Program-made: the position numbers and the translations under genes
The notes under the pieces: generated by a model
Seen by the model: only the letters and a program-made list of their open reading frames with translations
Database searches by the model: none
Told to the model about the DNA's origin: nothing
Part shown: positions 4,017 through 28,079 of the stretch, piece after piece
Layout of the letters: each line of letters begins with the position of its first letter
Position numbering within the stretch: the stretch's first letter is position 1
Origin: Solirubrobacterales bacterium
GTDB taxonomy: Bacteria; Actinomycetota; Thermoleophilia; Solirubrobacterales; 70-9
Length of the DNA: 64,000 nt
Assembly (NCBI GenBank): GCA_040879985.1
Contig: JBBDJH010000004.1
Location: forward strand, 14,115 to 78,114
Reading direction: 5' to 3'

Positions 4017-6155
4017 TCAGCCCCGCAGGCGTTCGGCCAGTCCGGAGTAGCGGCTGCCGCTGTCGTCGCGGCGGATCGCCATCTCGAGCGCGGCGGGGTC
4101 GCCGATCAGGACGCAGTTGGTGCGGGCGCGGGTGATCGCCGTGTAGAGCAGCGGCCGGCTCAGCATGCGGGCGTGGGAGCGGTGGCAGACGGCGACGACG
4201 ACGGGGACCTCGCACCCCTGCGCCTTGTGGACCGAGATCGCGTAGGCGAGGCGCAGGGTCGCCGTCTCGCCGTAGGGGATGCTCAGCGCGGCGCCCTCGT
4301 CCGTGTCGACGAGGATCGCCTCCTCCCCCGGGTCGTCCTCGCGCAGGAAGACAATCGAGCCGTTCATCAGCCCCAGCTCGTGCGAGTTGCGGGTCTGGAT
4401 CAGCCGGTCGCCGATGCGGAAGCGCTCGCTCACCGCCGCCCGCCCGTCCGGGTTGAGCCGCGCCTGCAGGCGCTCGTTGAGCGCGTCGATCCCGACCGCC
4501 CCCTTGTACATCGGCGCCAGCACCTGCACCTCGCGGATCGGGTCGACGCCGAAGCTCGCCGGCGCCCGCTCGGCGACCACCTCGACCACGGTCTCCAGGG
4601 CGCGCTCCGGGCTCGGCCGGTCGATGAAGAAGAAGTCGTGGTCCTGGTCGCCCTGCGGCTGCAGGTGCGGCGGCCGGCCCTGGTTGATCTCGTGGGCGGC
4701 GGTGGTGATCATCGATCGCGCCGCCTGGCGGAAGATCTGGGTCAGCCGCACCACCGGGGCGACGCCGGCGGCGATCAGGTCCTCGAAGGGCTTGCCGGCG
4801 CCGATCGGCGGCAGCTGGTCGGCGTCGCCGACGAAGACGACGTGGGTCGTCTCGGCCAGGCCGCCGAGCAGGACCTCGATCAGGCGCAGGTTCAGCATCG
4901 AGGCCTCGTCGACGATCGCCAGCTCGGCGGGCAGCGGGTGGCCGGGCCGGTAGGCGGGCTCGCGCCCCGGCATCCACTCGAGCATCCGGTGGATCGTCTG
5001 CGCCTCGTGCCCGGTCGCCTCCTCGAGCCGGCGGGCGGCGCGGCCGGTCGGCGCGCAGAGCGCGATCGGGACGCCGGCCCGCTGGGCCTCGGCGACGATC
5101 GCCTTCGTGCAGGCGGTCTTGCCGACGCCGGGGCCGCCGGTGAGGACCGAGATCCGCGCCGCGAAGGCGCCGCGCACCGCCGCCCACTGCTCCTCGGTCA
5201 GCTCCGCCTCGTCCTCCACCCCGAGCGGCGGCGTCTCCCCCGGGTCGTGGTCGAGGTGGGGCTCGGCGGCGGCCCGGGCGGCCAGCGTCGCCGCGACGGC
5301 GACCTCGCCGGCGTGGGTCGGCTCGCGGTAGGCGCGCCCCTGGTCGAGCAGCAGGCCGCGCGCCTGGCCCGGCACGTCGGGGTCGGGCCGCAACCCGATC
5401 AGCTTCGCGGTGCGCTCGTTGAGCTCGTCCAGCGGCAGGTAGGCGTTGCCCTGCTGCTCGGCCTCGGAGAGGGCGAAGACCGCGGCCGCCTGGGCGCGCC
5501 GGTCGGACTCCGGCGGCACGTCGGCGGCGAGGGCGATCTTGTCGGCGCGGGCGAAGCCGACGCCGGCGACCTCGGTCAGCCGGTAGGGGTCCTCGTGCAG
5601 GACGGTCAGCGCCCGCTCGGCGAAGCGGGCGTGGATCGGCGCCGCCAGGTGGGCCAGCCCGTGCGGGGCCAGCTGCACGTGCAGGTCGCGGATCGCCCGC
5701 GAGGCGTGCCAGGACTCGGCCGCGGCGGCGGCCTGCGCGGCGCTGACCCCGCGCAGGTCGGCGAAGACGCCGGCCGGGTCGGCGGCGATCGCCCCCAGCA
5801 CCCCCTCGCCGTGCTCGTCGACGAGCCGCTCGGCGCGGGCCGGCCCGATGTGGCGCAGCGTCGTCAGGTAGGCGACCTGGCCGGCCCGGTCGGCCGGATC
5901 GAGCGGCAGCGCGCCGCGCGCCTTGAGCTGGCGCCCGTAGCGCGAGTGGGTCTGCCAGTCGCCGCTGACTTCGGCCCGGTCGCCGGCGCTCAGGTGGGCG
6001 ACCGGGCCGACCAGGGCAAAGCCCTCGCCGCTCTCGGCCTCCTGCACCTCGAGCACCGCGTAGCCGTCGTCCTCGGCGCTGAAGATGACGCCGAGCACCT
6101 CGACCGTGCCGGTGAACGCGGCCGCATCGGCGTCGAAGAGCGTCGCGGCATCCAT
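4017..6155 (-). CDS. recD2: RecD2-type ATP-dependent 5'-3' DNA helicase (RecD/TraA family)
   Basis: Walker A VLTGGPGVGKT, Walker B AIVDEASML, FVGDADQLPPIG, and C-terminal ISVHKAQG..TAITRAR. Start trimmed to MDAATLF (6155); the 149 upstream codons of the track ORF overlap the opposite-strand transporter gene. Confidence 0.85.
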   Translation of the reverse strand: MDAATLFDADAAAFTGTVEVLGVIFSAEDDGYAVLEVQEAESGEGFALVGPVAHLSAGDRAEVSGDWQTHSRYGRQLKARGALPLDPADRAGQVAYLTTLRHIGPARAERLVDEHGEGVLGAIAADPAGVFADLRGVSAAQAAAAAESWHASRAIRDLHVQLAPHGLAHLAAPIHARFAERALTVLHEDPYRLTEVAGVGFARADKIALAADVPPESDRRAQAAAVFALSEAEQQGNAYLPLDELNERTAKLIGLRPDPDVPGQARGLLLDQGRAYREPTHAGEVAVAATLAARAAAEPHLDHDPGETPPLGVEDEAELTEEQWAAVRGAFAARISVLTGGPGVGKTACTKAIVAEAQRAGVPIALCAPTGRAARRLEEATGHEAQTIHRMLEWMPGREPAYRPGHPLPAELAIVDEASMLNLRLIEVLLGGLAETTHVVFVGDADQLPPIGAGKPFEDLIAAGVAPVVRLTQIFRQAARSMITTAAHEINQGRPPHLQPQGDQDHDFFFIDRPSPERALETVVEVVAERAPASFGVDPIREVQVLAPMYKGAVGIDALNERLQARLNPDGRAAVSERFRIGDRLIQTRNSHELGLMNGSIVFLREDDPGEEAILVDTDEGAALSIPYGETATLRLAYAISVHKAQGCEVPVVVAVCHRSHARMLSRPLLYTAITRARTNCVLIGDPAALEMAIRRDDSGSRYSGLAERLRG

Positions 6156-6198
6156 GCCGTCGAGGCTAGTCAACCGACCCCGCAGCCACAATGCGGGC

Positions 6199-6900
6199 GT
6201 GGGCGAAGCGGTCCTCTTTGCGGTTGTTGCCTCGAGCGCGCTGCCGCTCGGCGCGCTGATCGCGGTCTGGCGCCCGCCGCCGCGCCAGGTCACCGCGGCG
6301 CTGCTCGGCTTCGCCTCCGGCGCCCTGATCACCGCGGTCGCCTTCGAGCTCTTCGAGAAAGCCTTCGTGCACGGCGGCGCCTGGCGCGCCGGGCTCGCCT
6401 TCTTCGCCGGGGCGACCGCCTTCATCCTCGTCGACGGCTGGCTCGAGCGGCGCCAGGCGCGCCAGCGGGCGCGCGGCGGCGTCGTCGGCCTCGCCCTGCT
6501 GGCCGGCGTGACGCTGGACGGGGTCCCGGAGAACCTCGCGATGGGAGTCGCCCTGCTCGAGGGCGGCGCCGTCACCCTGCTGGTGGCGATCTTCGCCTCC
6601 AACCTGCCGGAGGCGATCGTCGGCGCCGAGAAGATGCGCGAGGAACGCGGCGATCGCGAGATCGTCGCGATCTGGACCGCGACCGCGGGGCTGCTGGCGG
6701 TCGCGGTCGTCGTCGGCTACGTGGCGCTGCAGGGCGTCGGCGCGAGCGGCCTCGCCTGGCCGCTCGGCTTCGCCGCGGGCGCCGTGCTCGCCTCGTTAGC
6801 CGACACGCTGATGCCCGAGGCCTACGGCGAGGGAGGCCCGCCGGTCGCCTACGCAACCGCGCTCGGCTTCCTCACCTCGTTCCTGATCTCAGCAGCCTGA
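6199..6900 (+). CDS. ZIP-family divalent metal transporter (ZupT-like)
   Basis: Multi-pass membrane protein with the GVTLDGVPENLAMG and FASNLPEA motifs typical of ZIP permeases. The start is uncertain: I chose GTG 6199, but the ORF is open from 6085. Confidence 0.7.
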   Translation: MGEAVLFAVVASSALPLGALIAVWRPPPRQVTAALLGFASGALITAVAFELFEKAFVHGGAWRAGLAFFAGATAFILVDGWLERRQARQRARGGVVGLALLAGVTLDGVPENLAMGVALLEGGAVTLLVAIFASNLPEAIVGAEKMREERGDREIVAIWTATAGLLAVAVVVGYVALQGVGASGLAWPLGFAAGAVLASLADTLMPEAYGEGGPPVAYATALGFLTSFLISAA

Positions 6901-6907
6901 GCCGGGG

Positions 6908-6950
6908 GTGGTCGAGGTTTGGGTCGCATAGCGGTTCAAACCTCGACCAC
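6908..6950. repeat. Family-A palindromic element, copy 1 (loop inverted relative to copies 2 and 3)
   Basis: GTGGTCGAGGTTTG-ggtcgcatagcggttc-AAACCTCGACCAC. It lies between the convergent stops of the ZIP gene (6900) and the small Cys-rich ORF (6953). Confidence 0.85.
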
Positions 6951-20041: not shown

Positions 20042-22327
20042 GTCGAAGGCGTTCTCGCGCAGCAGCCCGGTCACCTTCTCGGCGGTGAGCGGGCGCGAGA
20101 AGAGGTGGCCCTGGGCGTAGTCGCAGCGGAGCCGGCGCAGCTCCGAGAGCTGCGCCTCGTTCTCGACCCCCTCGGCGATCGCGTCGAGTGAGAGGGCGCG
20201 GGCCATCCCGATCACCGCCTCGACGATCGCCGTGCGCTCCTGCTCGATGCCGAGGCCCTCGACGAAGGAGCGATCGATCTTCAGCGCGTCGAAGGGGAAG
20301 CGGTTGAGGTAGGCGAGCGAGGAGTAGCCGGTGCCGAAGTCGTCGAGGACGAGGCGGACGCCGATATCGCTGAGCTCCTCGAGGGTCGCTGTGGCGCCGG
20401 CCGACTCGCCGACGAGCGCGCTCTCGGTCACCTCGAGCCGCAGGTTGACCGGCTCGAGCCCGGTGCGGGCGAGGATCTCGCGCACGGTCGTGGCCAGGTC
20501 GCGGTGCGCCACCTGGCGCGCCGAGAGGTTGACGGCGACGTCGAGCGGGCGCTGGTCGGGGCGCAGCTCGTGCCAGCCGAGCGCCTGGCGACAGGCGGTC
20601 TCCTGCACCCAGCGGCCGATCGACTCGATCAGGCCGCTGTCCTCGGCGACCGAGACGAACTCGCCGGGGTCGAGCAGGCCGCGCTCGGGGTGCCGCCAGC
20701 GCACCAGCGCCTCGAGGCCGACGATCTCGCCGCTGCCCAGGCAGACCAGCGGCTGGTAGTGCAGCTCGAGCTCGTCGCGGTCGAGCGCGTGGCGCAGCTC
20801 GCGCTCGGTCTCGAGCCGGCGCAGCGCGTGGGCGCGCATCTCGGCGTCGAAGAGTTCGCAGCGGCCGCGGCCGCGCTCCTTCGCCCGGTACATGGCGGCG
20901 TCGGCGTCGCGGATCAACAGCTCGGCGTCGACCGGCTCGCTGCCGATCGGCCGGGCGATCGCGATGCCGACGCTGGCGGTGACGAAGTGGTCGGCGCCGC
21001 CCATCGAGTAGGGCTCCGAGAAGGCGCCCGCGACCCGGTCGGCGATCGCCAGCGCCTCGTTTTCGTCGCTGAGCCGGTCGACGAGGATGCCGAACTCATC
21101 GCCGCCGAAGCGGGCGACGAGGTCGCCGGGCCGCAGGTGGGCGCGCAGGCGCGGCGCGACCGCCTGCAGCAGTTCGTCGCCGGCGTGGTGGCCGATGCTG
21201 TCGTTGATCAGCTTGAAGTGGTCGAGGTCGAGGAAGAGGATGCCGACCGGCGAGCCCGAGGCGGTGCTGCGGTGCAGCGCGTCGCGCAGCGAGTCGACGA
21301 AGCTGAGTCGGTTGGGGAGGCCGGTGAGGGAGTCGTGCAGGACCCGATGGCGCAGCGCCTCGTCGGCGCTGTGGCGCTCCAGCGCGTCGGCCAGCACGTT
21401 GGCCGAGGCCTGGACGAAGTGGACGTCCTGGGGGGTGAAGCGGCTCGGCTCGGTGGAGTGGATGTCGAGCACACCGAAGGGGCGCTCCTTGCCGGCGATC
21501 GGCACGGCGAGGCTGCTGCGCACGTCGAGCACGCGCAGCGCCGGCGGCATCGAGTAGCGCCGCTCGCTGGACCAGTCGTCGACGATCACGTGCAGGCCCG
21601 ACTCCAGCGCCGCGCCGGCATGCGAGTCGCGCGCCGCCGAGGCGCGGCGCTCGGCGCCGCCGCCGCGCTCCTCGAGCCCGGCGCGCAGGTGCAGGCGGCG
21701 GCCCTCGCGGCCCGCCTCCCAGACGCAGGCCGCCTCGACGCCCTCGATCTCTGCCATCAGCGGCACCGCCTGCTTGGCGAGGCGCTGCGGGTCGCCGTCC
21801 TGCAGCGCGTGCCGGCCGAGTCGCGCCACCGCGGCCTGCTGGGCCGCCGCCCGGTGCAGCTCCTGCTCGGCGAGCTTGCGCTCGGTGATGTCGTAGAGGA
21901 CGCCGTGCCAGACCTGGATGCCGGCGTCGTCGGGCTCCAGCACCGCCTCGTCGAGGATCCAGACGACGGTGCCCTCGCGGCTGATCATCCGGTAGTCGAT
22001 CGGCGGCGCGTTGCAGCCGTCCCCGGCCGCCTTGCGCGTCTCCTGCTCGAGCGCGCTCGCGCGGTCCTCGGGATGGACTCGCGCGGCCCAGAGCCCCGCG
22101 TCGGCCATCCACTCCTCTGGGCTGTAACCGAGGATCTGCTCGATCTGGGGGCTGACGTAGCGCCAGCGACCGCGCTCGCCGAGCTCGCAGGAGTAGACGA
22201 TCGCGGGCAGGCGCTCGATCAGGCGGCGGTAGCCTCCGGCCGCCGAGGAGATCTCACCGAGGAACTCGGCGACGCGCTCTTCGGGCCAGCCCTCGCCCGT
22301 GGAGCCGATCTCGCCCGCGCGTTCCAT
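20018..22327 (-). CDS. PAS-GAF-GGDEF-EAL c-di-GMP signalling protein
   Basis: PAS (LPAIVYSC..YVSPQIEQILGYSPEEW), GAF (..SSLAVPIAGKERPFGVLDIH), GGDEF (RFGGDEFGIL), and EAL (LEALVRW, DDFGTGYSSL). Confidence 0.9.
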   Translation of the reverse strand: MERAGEIGSTGEGWPEERVAEFLGEISSAAGGYRRLIERLPAIVYSCELGERGRWRYVSPQIEQILGYSPEEWMADAGLWAARVHPEDRASALEQETRKAAGDGCNAPPIDYRMISREGTVVWILDEAVLEPDDAGIQVWHGVLYDITERKLAEQELHRAAAQQAAVARLGRHALQDGDPQRLAKQAVPLMAEIEGVEAACVWEAGREGRRLHLRAGLEERGGGAERRASAARDSHAGAALESGLHVIVDDWSSERRYSMPPALRVLDVRSSLAVPIAGKERPFGVLDIHSTEPSRFTPQDVHFVQASANVLADALERHSADEALRHRVLHDSLTGLPNRLSFVDSLRDALHRSTASGSPVGILFLDLDHFKLINDSIGHHAGDELLQAVAPRLRAHLRPGDLVARFGGDEFGILVDRLSDENEALAIADRVAGAFSEPYSMGGADHFVTASVGIAIARPIGSEPVDAELLIRDADAAMYRAKERGRGRCELFDAEMRAHALRRLETERELRHALDRDELELHYQPLVCLGSGEIVGLEALVRWRHPERGLLDPGEFVSVAEDSGLIESIGRWVQETACRQALGWHELRPDQRPLDVAVNLSARQVAHRDLATTVREILARTGLEPVNLRLEVTESALVGESAGATATLEELSDIGVRLVLDDFGTGYSSLAYLNRFPFDALKIDRSFVEGLGIEQERTAIVEAVIGMARALSLDAIAEGVENEAQLSELRRLRCDYAQGHLFSRPLTAEKVTGLLRENAFDLLGDLAR

Positions 22328-22357
22328 GCGGGCCTATCGGCAGCGGGCGGGGTTCCT

Positions 22358-23314
22358 TTATCTGTACAAGCCGATCGTCCAGATGCCCGCCAGGCCGCGG
22401 AAGGGCTCGTAGGGCGCGTAGAACTCCTCGACCTCCTCGACGGTGGCGCGGCGGCCGAGCCGGGCCAGGCGGCCGACCAGCTTGAGGAAGACCAGGTCGC
22501 CGGCCGGCAGCGAGTCGGGGTCGCCGCGCCCGAACAGGCCGAGGCACTGCACGGTCCAGGGGCCGATTTCGGGGATCGCCAGCAGCCGCCGGTCGGCGCC
22601 GGGCTCGCCGGGCGAGACCCGGCCGGCGGCGATCTCGCGGGCGACGGCGCGCAGGGCGACCGAGCGGCCGGGCGAGAGCTCCATCGCGGCCAGTTCGGCC
22701 GGCGCCCGGCCGGCGATCGTCGCCGCGGCCGGGACATCGCGCAGGGGGTGGTCGAGGTTTGAACCGCTATGCGACTCAAACCTCGACCACCCCCCGTTGC
22801 GATCGGGCTCGAGCCGCGCGCCCCAGCGGCCGACGATGCGGCGCTGGATGCGGGCGGCGCGCTCGCTCTCGATCAGCTGTTTGACGACGGCCCAGGCGAG
22901 CGCCTCCCAGGCCCAGGGCCGGCGCGCCGGCCGCAGCCAGGGCCGGCGACGCAGCAACGGGCCGAGCAGCGGGTCGCGGCTGAAGCGGCGGTAGAACTGC
23001 GTCAGGTCGTCATCGACCCCGAGCGCGAAGCGCATCCGCTCGATCGCCAGCCGCAGCTCGGCCTGGCCGGCGGGACGGCTGGCCGGCGAGGGGATCGAGT
23101 GCGGCGCGGCGACCGCCTCCGGGTCGAGCGGCTCGGCGCGCAGCGCGACCCGCCCGCCGCCCGGTTCCCAGGCCCGCACCAGGACGGGGCTCTCCCCCAC
23201 CCGCAGCAGCCGCGCGACAACCCCGCCGCCGGCCCGCATCACCCGGTCTTCGCTGCTGTAGCGGGGCAGCCGAAAGGGCGAAGCCGGCTTCGCCTCGACC
23301 GCGAGGCTCGTCAC
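22358..23314 (-). CDS. DNA-3-methyladenine glycosylase II-like (AlkA/HhH-GPD) carrying an in-frame repeat insertion
   Basis: HhH-GPD core PWEALAWAVVKQLI..AARIQRRIV.. then IPEIGPWTVQCLGLFGRGDPDSLPAGDLVF (HhH plus catalytic Asp). GTG start overlaps the upstream stop (GTGA). Confidence 0.75.
   Translation of the reverse strand: MTSLAVEAKPASPFRLPRYSSEDRVMRAGGGVVARLLRVGESPVLVRAWEPGGGRVALRAEPLDPEAVAAPHSIPSPASRPAGQAELRLAIERMRFALGVDDDLTQFYRRFSRDPLLGPLLRRRPWLRPARRPWAWEALAWAVVKQLIESERAARIQRRIVGRWGARLEPDRNGGWSRFESHSGSNLDHPLRDVPAAATIAGRAPAELAAMELSPGRSVALRAVAREIAAGRVSPGEPGADRRLLAIPEIGPWTVQCLGLFGRGDPDSLPAGDLVFLKLVGRLARLGRRATVEEVEEFYAPYEPFRGLAGIWTIGLYR
22744..22795. repeat. Family-A palindromic element, copy 2, inside the alkA-like CDS
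   Basis: GGGGGTGGTCGAGGTTTGAACCGCTATGCGACTCAAACCTCGACCACCCCC. It is translated in frame as GGWSRFESHSGSNLDHP. Confidence 0.85.
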
Positions 23315-26845: not shown

Positions 26846-26959
26846 AGAGCCGATTCCGCTAGGCCTCCACTTAACTTTTTCCGAAGACAGTTAGCGGCCG
26901 TCCGAGAACGGCTGTTCGGAAAAAGTACAAGACGTTCCGACCTAGCGGAATCGGCTCTT
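26846..26959. repeat. Family-B nested-hairpin element, copy 3 (inverted orientation, different outer stem)
   Basis: Perfect 19-bp outer arms AAGAGCCGATTCCGCTAGG / CCTAGCGGAATCGGCTCTT enclose CCACTTAACTTTTTCCGAAGACA..GGCCGTCCGAGAACGG..CGGAAAAAGTACAAGACGTTCC. Confidence 0.85.
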
Positions 26960-27012
26960 AACGCAGCGATTGCGATTCTCGCCACTCCCGTGATCTAAAC
27001 TCGTAGCTGGGT

Positions 27013-27507
27013 ATGCCCGATCTGCTCGAAAGAGGGATGCGCAGCGAGCTTCGCCTCGATGGGGACGAGAAGCTGGCGCGAGTCGAGTTGCGGCGACAGA
27101 TCGGGCGGCTGGAAGCTGAGTTGGGCTCGCTTGTCTCCGATGCTTTTTCGCGTTTGCGATTGGACACCGGCGTCGCCGCCATCTCCGGCAGCCCCAGGGT
27201 GCTGGGGCTAGGCGAGCTGGAGGAAGTTCGGGATTCGCTGGCGACGCGGATCGGCGAGGCGCGCACCGCGCTGCGGGAGCAGGACGAGTTGGAGACCCGC
27301 AATCGTCAGCTGCTCGAGCGCATGATCGAGTCGCCCGCCGATTTCAAGTGGCTGCAGATCTCGCGCGACGACATCGGCGCGCCCGGCTGCGGCCACTGGC
27401 ACTCCCGACCCCGCCTCGGCTTGATCGGCATGCTGATGGGCTGGTGGCGGGTCAGGGTCTCCTCCGGATGCCCGTTATCCGGGCGGCTTGCGGCCGTTGA
27501 GCGATAG
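27013..27507 (+). CDS. Hypothetical protein (coiled-coil N-terminus, Cys/Trp-rich C-terminus)
   Basis: 164 aa of non-shadow composition (..RRQIGRLEAELGSL.. ; ..GAPGCGHWHSRPRLGLIGMLMGWWRVRVSSGCP). No family recognised. Confidence 0.45.
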   Translation: MPDLLERGMRSELRLDGDEKLARVELRRQIGRLEAELGSLVSDAFSRLRLDTGVAAISGSPRVLGLGELEEVRDSLATRIGEARTALREQDELETRNRQLLERMIESPADFKWLQISRDDIGAPGCGHWHSRPRLGLIGMLMGWWRVRVSSGCPLSGRLAAVER

Positions 27508-27907
27508 CGCCAAAAGGGCCCCCCGCGCCGACGAACGCCCGCCCGCTCCCTGGGGATCGTTCCCGCTGGCCGAGCTGACCGTGCTCGCCGGAATCGTCAT
27601 GCTCGCGATCGGGATCTTCAGCACGAGCCCGACCGCAATCGGCGTCGGCGTCGTGCTCGCCGGCCTCGGCGGCCTCGAGGTCTCCGCCCGTGAGCACTTC
27701 GCCGGCTACCGCTCGCACACCACCCTGCTCGCCGGCGTAGTCTTCGTCCTCGTCACCGGCGGCCTCTTCTACCTCGCCGGCTTGATCCTCGCGATCTGCC
27801 TCGCGGTCGGCGCCGTAGCCTTTGCAGCTACTTTCTACGCTCTGCGCCGCGCCTTCCAGAAGGCCTCGGGCGGACTCTCGTTCAGGGCCGGCGGCCTGAG
27901 GGGGTAG
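27488..27907 (+). CDS. Hypothetical 4-TM membrane protein
   Basis: Four hydrophobic helices (LAELTVLAGIVMLAIGIF.., AIGVGVVLAGLGGL, LLAGVVFVLVTGGLFYLAGLILAICLAVGAVAFAA). Confidence 0.5.
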   Translation: MRPLSDSAKRAPRADERPPAPWGSFPLAELTVLAGIVMLAIGIFSTSPTAIGVGVVLAGLGGLEVSAREHFAGYRSHTTLLAGVVFVLVTGGLFYLAGLILAICLAVGAVAFAATFYALRRAFQKASGGLSFRAGGLRG

Positions 27908-27916
27908 ATGGCTGAC

Positions 27917-27963
27917 ACGTGGTCGAGGTTTGAACCGCTATGCGACTCAAACCTCGACCACGT
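27917..27963. repeat. Family-A palindromic element, copy 3
   Basis: ACGTGGTCGAGGTTTGAACCGCTATGCGACTCAAACCTCGACCACGT. The 43-nt core is identical to copy 2. It begins 10 nt after the stop of the 27488-27907 ORF. Confidence 0.9.
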
Positions 27964-27970
27964 CGGACGA

Positions 27971-28079
27971 GGACATCCCGGTAGGGGTGGAACGTCTTGT
28001 ACTTTTTCCGCGACGGCGACCTCGGACGGCCGCAATTTGTCTTCGGAAAAAGTTAAGTGGAACCCCTGCCGGGATGTCC
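27971..28079. repeat. Family-B nested-hairpin element, copy 2 (109 bp), abutting A copy 3
   Basis: GGACATCCCGGTAGGGGTGGAACGTCTTGTACTTTTTCCG..GACCTCGGACGGCCGCAATTT..CGGAAAAAGTTAAGTGGAACCCCTGCCGGGATGTCC. It ends 5 nt before the stop of the 28084-28752 gene. Confidence 0.9.

Follow-up and report, generated by a model that had tools for sequence, protein, structure and literature searches.

Our analysis revealed that the palindrome at positions 22744-22794 of the window, the whole 64,000-nucleotide stretch of DNA that was analysed, is very probably an intragenic copy of a genus-restricted REP-like hairpin, which lies in a permissive loop of an AlkA-type DNA glycosylase, is read as about 17 residues and has its frame kept by selection. 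The features concerned are the following.

22358..23314, minus strand: host gene, AlkA-like HhH-GPD DNA glycosylase, 318 aa
22744..22794, strand unassigned (.): 51-nt palindromic repeat copy, with the 43-nt core 22748-22790 extended by G5/C5
27919..27961, strand unassigned (.): intergenic copy with identical 43-nt core, 11 nt past the stop of the upstream gene
6909..6949, strand unassigned (.): third copy of the window, with 1 mismatch and the opposite loop orientation

The copy within the glycosylase gene, GGGGGTGGTCGAGGTTTGAACCGCTATGCGACTCAAACCTCGACCACCCCC, is perfectly palindromic over 51 nt outside its central 13-nt apical part. The original prediction had drawn this palindrome as 22744-22795; it holds for 22744-22794, and position 22795 is merely a sixth C outside it. 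Identity of the 43-nt core with 27919-27961, also proposed there, was confirmed by blastn (43/43). When the window was scanned with the 41-nt core pattern, exact matches were obtained at 22749-22789 and 27920-27960 and a match with one mismatch at 6909-6949 (0 matches in 100 shuffles of the sequence), the last being a copy that had previously been overlooked. As single-stranded DNA the element at 22744-22794 folds with -27 to -28 kcal/mol (z about -9.8). Translated from the minus strand, it corresponds to glycosylase residues G174-P190, GGWSRFESHSGSNLDHP, in agreement with the suggestion of an in-frame insert of about 17 codons in an HhH-GPD glycosylase ORF, and the three nearest orthologues are without it. 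The copy at 6909-6949 begins a few bases past the stop codon of ORF 6085-6900. The closest relative (L046) lacks the copy at 27919-27961 in its syntenic contig, the syntenic 21 kb of which contained no copies of the family.

Two further observations concern the surroundings of these copies. A 752-aa ORF on the plus strand (20504-22762) runs antisense and ends at a TGA within the repeat; it was rejected as a gene, being without coding GC3 pattern and an artefact of the 70% GC composition. A segment of roughly 0.94 kb (26955-27895) is inverted compared with the syntenic L046 contig, its boundaries lying at 26846-26959 and 27971-28079. In the window it is flanked on both sides by an unrelated repeat of about 75-110 nt in inverted orientation, GGAACGTCTTGTACTTTTTCCG...CGGAAAAAGTTAAGTGG, which L046 lacks, and recombination between the two flanking copies probably gave rise to the inversion.

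The host protein is composed of an N-terminal beta domain, a helix-hairpin-helix (HhH) at about residues 238-262 and an invariant D273. A profile built from 118 homologues matched E. coli AlkA (1diz, E = 1.4e-5), with the HhH and LPxxD region aligned. With a shallow alignment, in which none of the 118 sequences was less than 74% identical, the AlphaFold model was unusable (pLDDT 57), and a diverse alignment of 79 sequences was used instead, which gave a model with mean pLDDT 93.2 and pTM 0.90. Foldseek aligned this model over its full length with A. fulgidus AlkA (2jhj) and E. coli AlkA (1mpg) at TM 0.73-0.80. The three-part fold, with HhH followed by the invariant Asp, is thus the same as in the AlkA proteins of E. 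coli and Archaeoglobus fulgidus (1mpg, 1diz, 2jhj), whereas sequence identity to them is only 17-19% and their structures have no counterpart of the 17-residue repeat-encoded loop. The protein has no Lys at the OGG1-type position and is therefore probably monofunctional.

The sole segment of the model with pLDDT below 50 is residues 175-187, the repeat-encoded stretch, which sits between helices 150-164 and 197-201. It had been placed just upstream of the HhH, but some 50 residues actually separate the insert from the HhH downstream of it (helices 238-245 and 252-262), and it also precedes the invariant D273. Judging from the model, the insert adds about 17 residues, probably disordered, in a permissive surface loop. 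In another glycosylase (L124, from MFD06229.bin.3.554), the same loop contains an unrelated tandem duplication, in which a 23-residue unit, RIGCERGASKQASLVLCAASEAR, occurs twice; the loop therefore tolerates other length changes too.

The single-sequence Pfam match to HhH-GPD reached 20.2 bits, below the gathering threshold of 26.2, and the insert of another genome (G106) contains a stop codon. Both could be taken to mean that the gene is a decaying pseudogene, a possibility which the original prediction had itself named as evidence against it, or that the insert is an assembly artefact. Such a reading is barely credible given the following results. The ORF is intact and keeps all family-invariant residues, D273 among them (D273, W253 and G251 are invariant across 79 diverse homologues), and the model shows the full AlkA fold at pLDDT 93. 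The dN/dS values against the two closest empty alleles are 0.29 and 0.20 (0.30 between those two alleles), and because of these values of 0.2-0.3 the glycosylase is considered intact and constrained. Insert-bearing alleles occur in dozens of independent assemblies, and an artefact is unlikely because independent MAG projects carry the copies. Most likely, the glycosylase with the insert stays functional.

The homologues fall into two length classes, 301/302 aa and 318 aa, and the difference in the alignments is exactly the insert segment. The three nearest homologues (P0002-4; 91-93% amino acid identity, dS 0.15-0.17) and all outgroup genera are without the insert and have 1-2 residues at this position, compared with 18 in the window gene. 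In all other genera and most species of the genus, the loop has a consensus of 10 residues, xRLGRDRGAL. At the DNA level, the empty alleles read GATCGC GGGGCG CTGCGC (L046) and GATCGC GTG TTGCGC (L048), while the window allele reads GATCGC AAC GGGGGGTGG...CACCCC CTGCGC. The orthologue alignment that had been recommended for finding the insert boundaries thus gives a net gain of 48 or 51 nt relative to L046 and L048, with no target-site duplication in this filled-versus-empty comparison. The 17 residues are absent from homologues of repeat-free genomes, contrary to what had been named as a possible refutation.

The presence of the insert was compared with the number of family copies in each genome. 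The glycosylase insert was found in seven of nine genomes with at least 11 family copies (G000, which is the source assembly of the window, G014, G018, G024, G058, G106 and G113; it is missing in G009 and G087) and in none of 18 genomes with at most five. In a tree of 138 homologues calculated with the insert columns removed, the window protein (P0001) groups with three empty alleles (99% clade), and the insert state changes at least 6 times on well-supported branches and about 25 times by parsimony. Losses can be seen directly in the alleles themselves and have occurred repeatedly: 'short' LRLDRAL alleles and VRLGAQPPAL alleles, which keep repeat-derived residues, are nested among VRLGGQSPAP[RSRFDPDSGPNL]DRAL alleles as deletion footprints. 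Tandem double inserts are present in three glycosylase alleles (P0042, P0070 and L097). The stop in the G106 glycosylase (L141 / L061) is an in-frame TAA within the insert (..RARF*PPSGSNLD..), and either the gene has been inactivated within its insert or the TAA is due to an error of sequencing. Gene inactivation can go along with insertions of this kind.

To describe the family as a whole, its copies were searched in G000 (2.15 Mb in 23 contigs, 70% GC, 93% complete) and in related genomes, which, like the homologues, are all labelled as uncultured Solirubrobacterales MAGs. Blastn-short identified 23 copies in G000. The conserved unit is 43 nt long (GTGGTCGAGGTTTGA - 13 nt - TCAAACCTCGACCAC); the bases beyond it vary and are often mutually complementary, and the outer stem differs among genomes. 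By pattern scan, the family is found in 26 of 101 species genomes of the genus, with 1-73 copies each, counts that come from related MAGs and are not independent. In an order-wide sample, eight of 301 genomes contain it, and five of the eight, G000 included, belong to this same genus. The hairpin family is almost confined to one genus. Rfam contains no matching family and returned one spurious miRNA-hairpin match far below threshold.

The stem bases are diagnostic of the genome: GGGTGGTCGAGG..CCTCGACCACCC in G000, GCGCGGTCGAGG..CCTCGACCGCGC in G014 and GCGCCGTAGAGG..CCTCTACGGCGC in G113, with both arms changing together. Among 70 copies from four genomes, 84.8% of the stem cells are paired, against 28-40% with the partner slid. 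Three stem positions alternate cleanly between two kinds of Watson-Crick pair (48 CG / 20 UA, 52 GC / 18 CG and 42 CG / 18 AU), these counts representing lineage-specific variants and not independent events. According to a crude GC3-based gene caller, 13 of the 23 G000 copies lie outside called genes, most of them 0-30 nt past a stop codon. Neither a target-site consensus nor a target-site duplication was found, and the left flank of empty sites is variable at the nucleotide level. Two G000 sites (C7:28584-28641 and C21:224722-224768) show partial tandem duplications of the repeat arm, GGTGGTCGAGGTGGGTGGTCGAGG... and ...CCTCGACCACCTCGACCAC, which fit slippage or insertion beside an existing copy. 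At three others (C6:21267, C16:26822 and C16:246140), the apical trinucleotide is ATA and not TAT while the asymmetric flanking bases keep their orientation; the loop alone could have been inverted.

The genome-wide survey of copy locations and reading frames that had been proposed earlier identified, among the 23 copies of G000, eight located in frame inside long ORFs, with coding composition on both sides (frame-specific GC3 and translation), and only stop-free frames are used. Besides the glycosylase, the G000 hosts confirmed by Pfam are as follows.

ThiL-like AIR-synthase-family kinase
GlmM, with the insert between domains I and II
GNAT/FemAB-like protein
DnaE2, with two copies, one in the PHP domain and one between HHH_6 and the OB fold
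UvrD/PD-(D/E)XK AddA-like helicase-nuclease
PKD-domain protein

Another copy forms the C-terminal tail of a ThiO-like oxidase, and two or three further copies lie at ambiguous 5' ends. Three of the seven clear host genes of G000 belong to DNA repair or replication. The DnaE2 gene has three variably occupied hairpin sites across species; at the site orthologous to C21:162177 of G000, both G000 and G058 have the family hairpin, and the G014 gene (L055) has at this site, site 2, a different perfect in-frame palindrome, GACGTGCCGTCACTTAAGGCCCCATATGGGTGCCTAAGTGACGGCACGTC.

The translations of the genic copies are limited to two, 'WSRFE[SP]HSGSNLDH' and 'GGRGL[DSN]R[IY]A.QTSTT', and the third reading frame of the repeat contains TGA in either orientation. 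A second signature was detected in G113, which has 53 copies with the consensus GTAGAGG..CCTCTAC. In frame 1 the 5' arm of this consensus would read NNG TAG AGG, with an in-frame stop. GTCGAGG on the 5' arm combined with CCTCTAC on the other is found in exactly five G113 copies, all of them genic and in frame 1 (two in DnaE2 and one each in the glycosylase, ThiL and a PabA/PabB-like fusion), and the GlmM copy, which is in frame 2, keeps GTAG. The same stop avoidance is seen in metagenomic glycosylase alleles ('..PSRF....NLYG..'). These base patterns show that selection keeps the genic copies open. The original prediction had offered two explanations for the frame-preserving copies, selection for frame-compatible insertions or a mechanism that produces them. 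The first is supported by the two stop-free frames and the stop-avoiding bases of G113, and nothing points to the second: since only stop-free frames are used and stops are avoided in G113, selection suffices for frame preservation and no frame-making mechanism is needed. In the proposed course of events, the repeat would be transcribed and translated along with the glycosylase gene. Insertions whose length cannot be divided by three, or whose reading frame is the one containing TGA, would be lost, and those in the two open frames ('WSRFE.HSGSNLDH' and 'GGRGL.R.A.QTSTT') would survive in tolerant loops. The insert would accordingly be part of the glycosylase made in vivo.

An adaptive insert, acting either through regulation of the glycosylase by an mRNA or DNA hairpin or through a function acquired by the encoded loop, would account for the maintenance of pairing by compensatory changes even in genes, such as GlmM of G009, and for the enrichment of hosts in DNA repair and replication (3/7 in G000, with the same bias in PMC3733652). 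We regard it as improbable, because the same DNA serves two reading frames as well as intergenic positions, repeated losses of the glycosylase insert have left deletion footprints, the closest relatives are without it, and the peptide is predicted to be disordered. Moreover, the sense strand is not biased toward the more stable (G·U-rich) RNA fold (8 vs 13 copies).

The history of the glycosylase site was considered from its junctions and from the copy itself. The right junction is the same in every filled allele, and the 26-codon spacing in almost all of them. The window allele is not a clean insertion relative to the empty alleles, having an extra AAC codon in common with distant insert-bearing alleles, and the resulting odd left flank 'CGC AAC GGG' is common to the window and, for example, L059. 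Shared junction, spacing and flank argue against a fully independent insertion in the window lineage. Together with the deletion footprints (LRLDRAL, and VRLGAQPPAL next to VRLGGQSPAP...DRAL), they would also fit a single ancient insertion inherited strictly vertically, without later exchange with other copies, the empty alleles being losses. That scenario is nevertheless highly unlikely: the window copy is identical to the G000 consensus (51/51) although dS to other filled alleles is 0.36-0.54, and stem bases of the own genome are found at four sites (see below). Being letter-perfect against its own consensus with empty nearest relatives, the window copy would be either young or recently homogenised. 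Two histories would fit: the element may have inserted recently at a site that had been used before, or the allele may have been inherited or recombined and its repeat subsequently replaced or converted by the G000 variant. A search for a recombination tract around the insert by sliding-window identity and SNP sharing gave no decisive signal.

At four orthologous genic sites, the copy of each genome carries the diagnostic stem bases of its own genome.

GlmM: 6/6 repeat-rich genomes examined
ThiL: G000 and G113
DnaE2 site 1: G000, G058 and G113
Glycosylase: the site described above

The GlmM insert is missing in four repeat-free genomes, and the GlmM tree is compatible with a single origin of the insert in the ancestor of the repeat-rich genomes. 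The G113 copy in GlmM is the exact G113 consensus with altered junctions, and GlmM of G009 shows compensatory stem changes. Own-genome stem variants combined with tandem dimers suggest turnover or concerted evolution. A serious candidate for the turnover, at somewhat less than even chances, is that a copy inserts next to a hairpin already in place and the two then collapse into one, or that short tracts are converted. The fuller proposal, which we put forward tentatively and hold to be marginally less probable, is that the hairpins, also those in essential genes, may undergo concerted evolution within each genome by a process that is independent of RAYTs and targets existing hairpins. A new copy would land beside the old one, giving tandem dimers, and the pair would collapse to one, so that positional orthologues carry the variant of their own genome, edited only where a stop would arise. 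A literature search on concerted evolution of REPs returned nothing directly relevant. If the proposal is true, RAYT-independent concerted evolution would represent a new way in which bacterial repeats are maintained and could account for the repeated occurrence of copies in repair genes.

The element was compared with known repeat systems. Like REPs, it is a short palindrome with many dispersed copies (23 in G000), mainly extragenic near the 3' ends of genes; classic REPs measure 20-40 nt, and the Solirubrobacterales element is somewhat longer (43-51 nt). Its copies are isolated single hairpins with occasional partial or complete tandem (direct) duplications, and not the doublets of REPINs. 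A MITE was rejected, as the whole element is one hairpin, without terminal inverted repeats around a distinct interior and without target-site duplication; the flanks of the copies are often mutually complementary, not duplicated. Like RPEs, the copies are dispersed palindromic repeats found both in frame and between genes, their peptides being tolerated in surface regions, and at least eight lie in frame in conserved, still open ORFs of Pfam-verified genes. RPE-1 is about 100-150 bp long. Compared with the RPEs of Rickettsia, the present element is shorter (43-51 bp) and belongs to an Actinomycetota host with 70% GC; the two are alike in behaviour, no relationship in sequence is to be expected, and membership in RPE-1 to RPE-10 is not claimed. 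As cited in PMC3733652, RPEs are located in frame inside intact conserved genes and also between genes (Ogata et al., 2000).

GTAG/CGTC REP hairpins mostly lie past the 3' ends of genes, and a minority of them occur within ORFs (Di Nocera et al., 2013; PMC3733652). Genes of replication and repair contain many of the intragenic ones; DnaE2 and UvrD/REP helicase are named among these genes, and in some cases one gene has two (PMC3733652). G000 shows the same host pattern, with DnaE2 (twice), a UvrD-like helicase and the AlkA-like glycosylase. A terminal GTAG or CGTC tag is the defining feature of these families, and the GTAG REPs are associated with RAYT genes (PMC3733652). In the Solirubrobacterales element, by contrast, the corresponding tetranucleotide (GTCG in G000, GTAG in G113 and GTTG in others, hence GT[C/A/T]G) invariably lies within the stem and has its mirror image on the opposite arm, and none of the 101 genomes yielded a RAYT. 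REPINs consist of inverted doublets linked to a RAYT that is present in single copy (bioRxiv 10.1101/2021.07.10.451892, PMC8049555). The REPIN-RAYT system (Bertels & Rainey; same sources) likewise comprises lineage-restricted, vertically persisting short palindromes with genome-specific master sequences, whereas the present copies are single hairpins without a RAYT, a large share of them inside genes.

If the element were a true REP/REPIN, moved by a cognate RAYT (Y1 HUH transposase) like those of Pseudomonas or E. coli, this would explain a short GC-rich palindrome with many copies just past stop codons, the GTAG/CTAC stem version of some sister genomes and the parallel with GTAG and CGTC REPs reported from within DnaE2 and UvrD genes (PMC3733652). 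Searching for Y1_Tnp (PF01797) gave no match in any of the 101 genus genomes, G000 included (MAGs 50-96% complete), while six of 14 control genomes gave matches, all six above the cut-off. With this result, with copies that are single 43-51-nt hairpins and not inverted doublets, and with GT[C/A/T]G within both stem arms and not at a 5' head, mobilisation by a RAYT is very unlikely. In-frame repeat insertion and the preference for repair genes are already published; what is new is the Solirubrobacterales lineage and the lack of a recognisable mobilising enzyme.

Through in-frame hairpin repeats, conserved enzymes can acquire peptide loops from DNA that is selfish or neutral. The present case extends this phenomenon to uncultured soil Solirubrobacterales and independently reproduces the published bias toward DnaE2, UvrD and repair genes. 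Avoidance of stop codons in exactly the genic copies is a clean signature of selection on repeat copies. For annotation, such inserts should be taken neither as frameshifts nor as marks of pseudogenes. The predicted insert-derived peptide WSRFESHSGSNLDHP would mark expression and translation of the insert. With closed MAG chromosomes, insert-polymorphic sites, tandem intermediates and deletion footprints, the family offers a tractable data set on how repeats spread and remain homogeneous without a RAYT.
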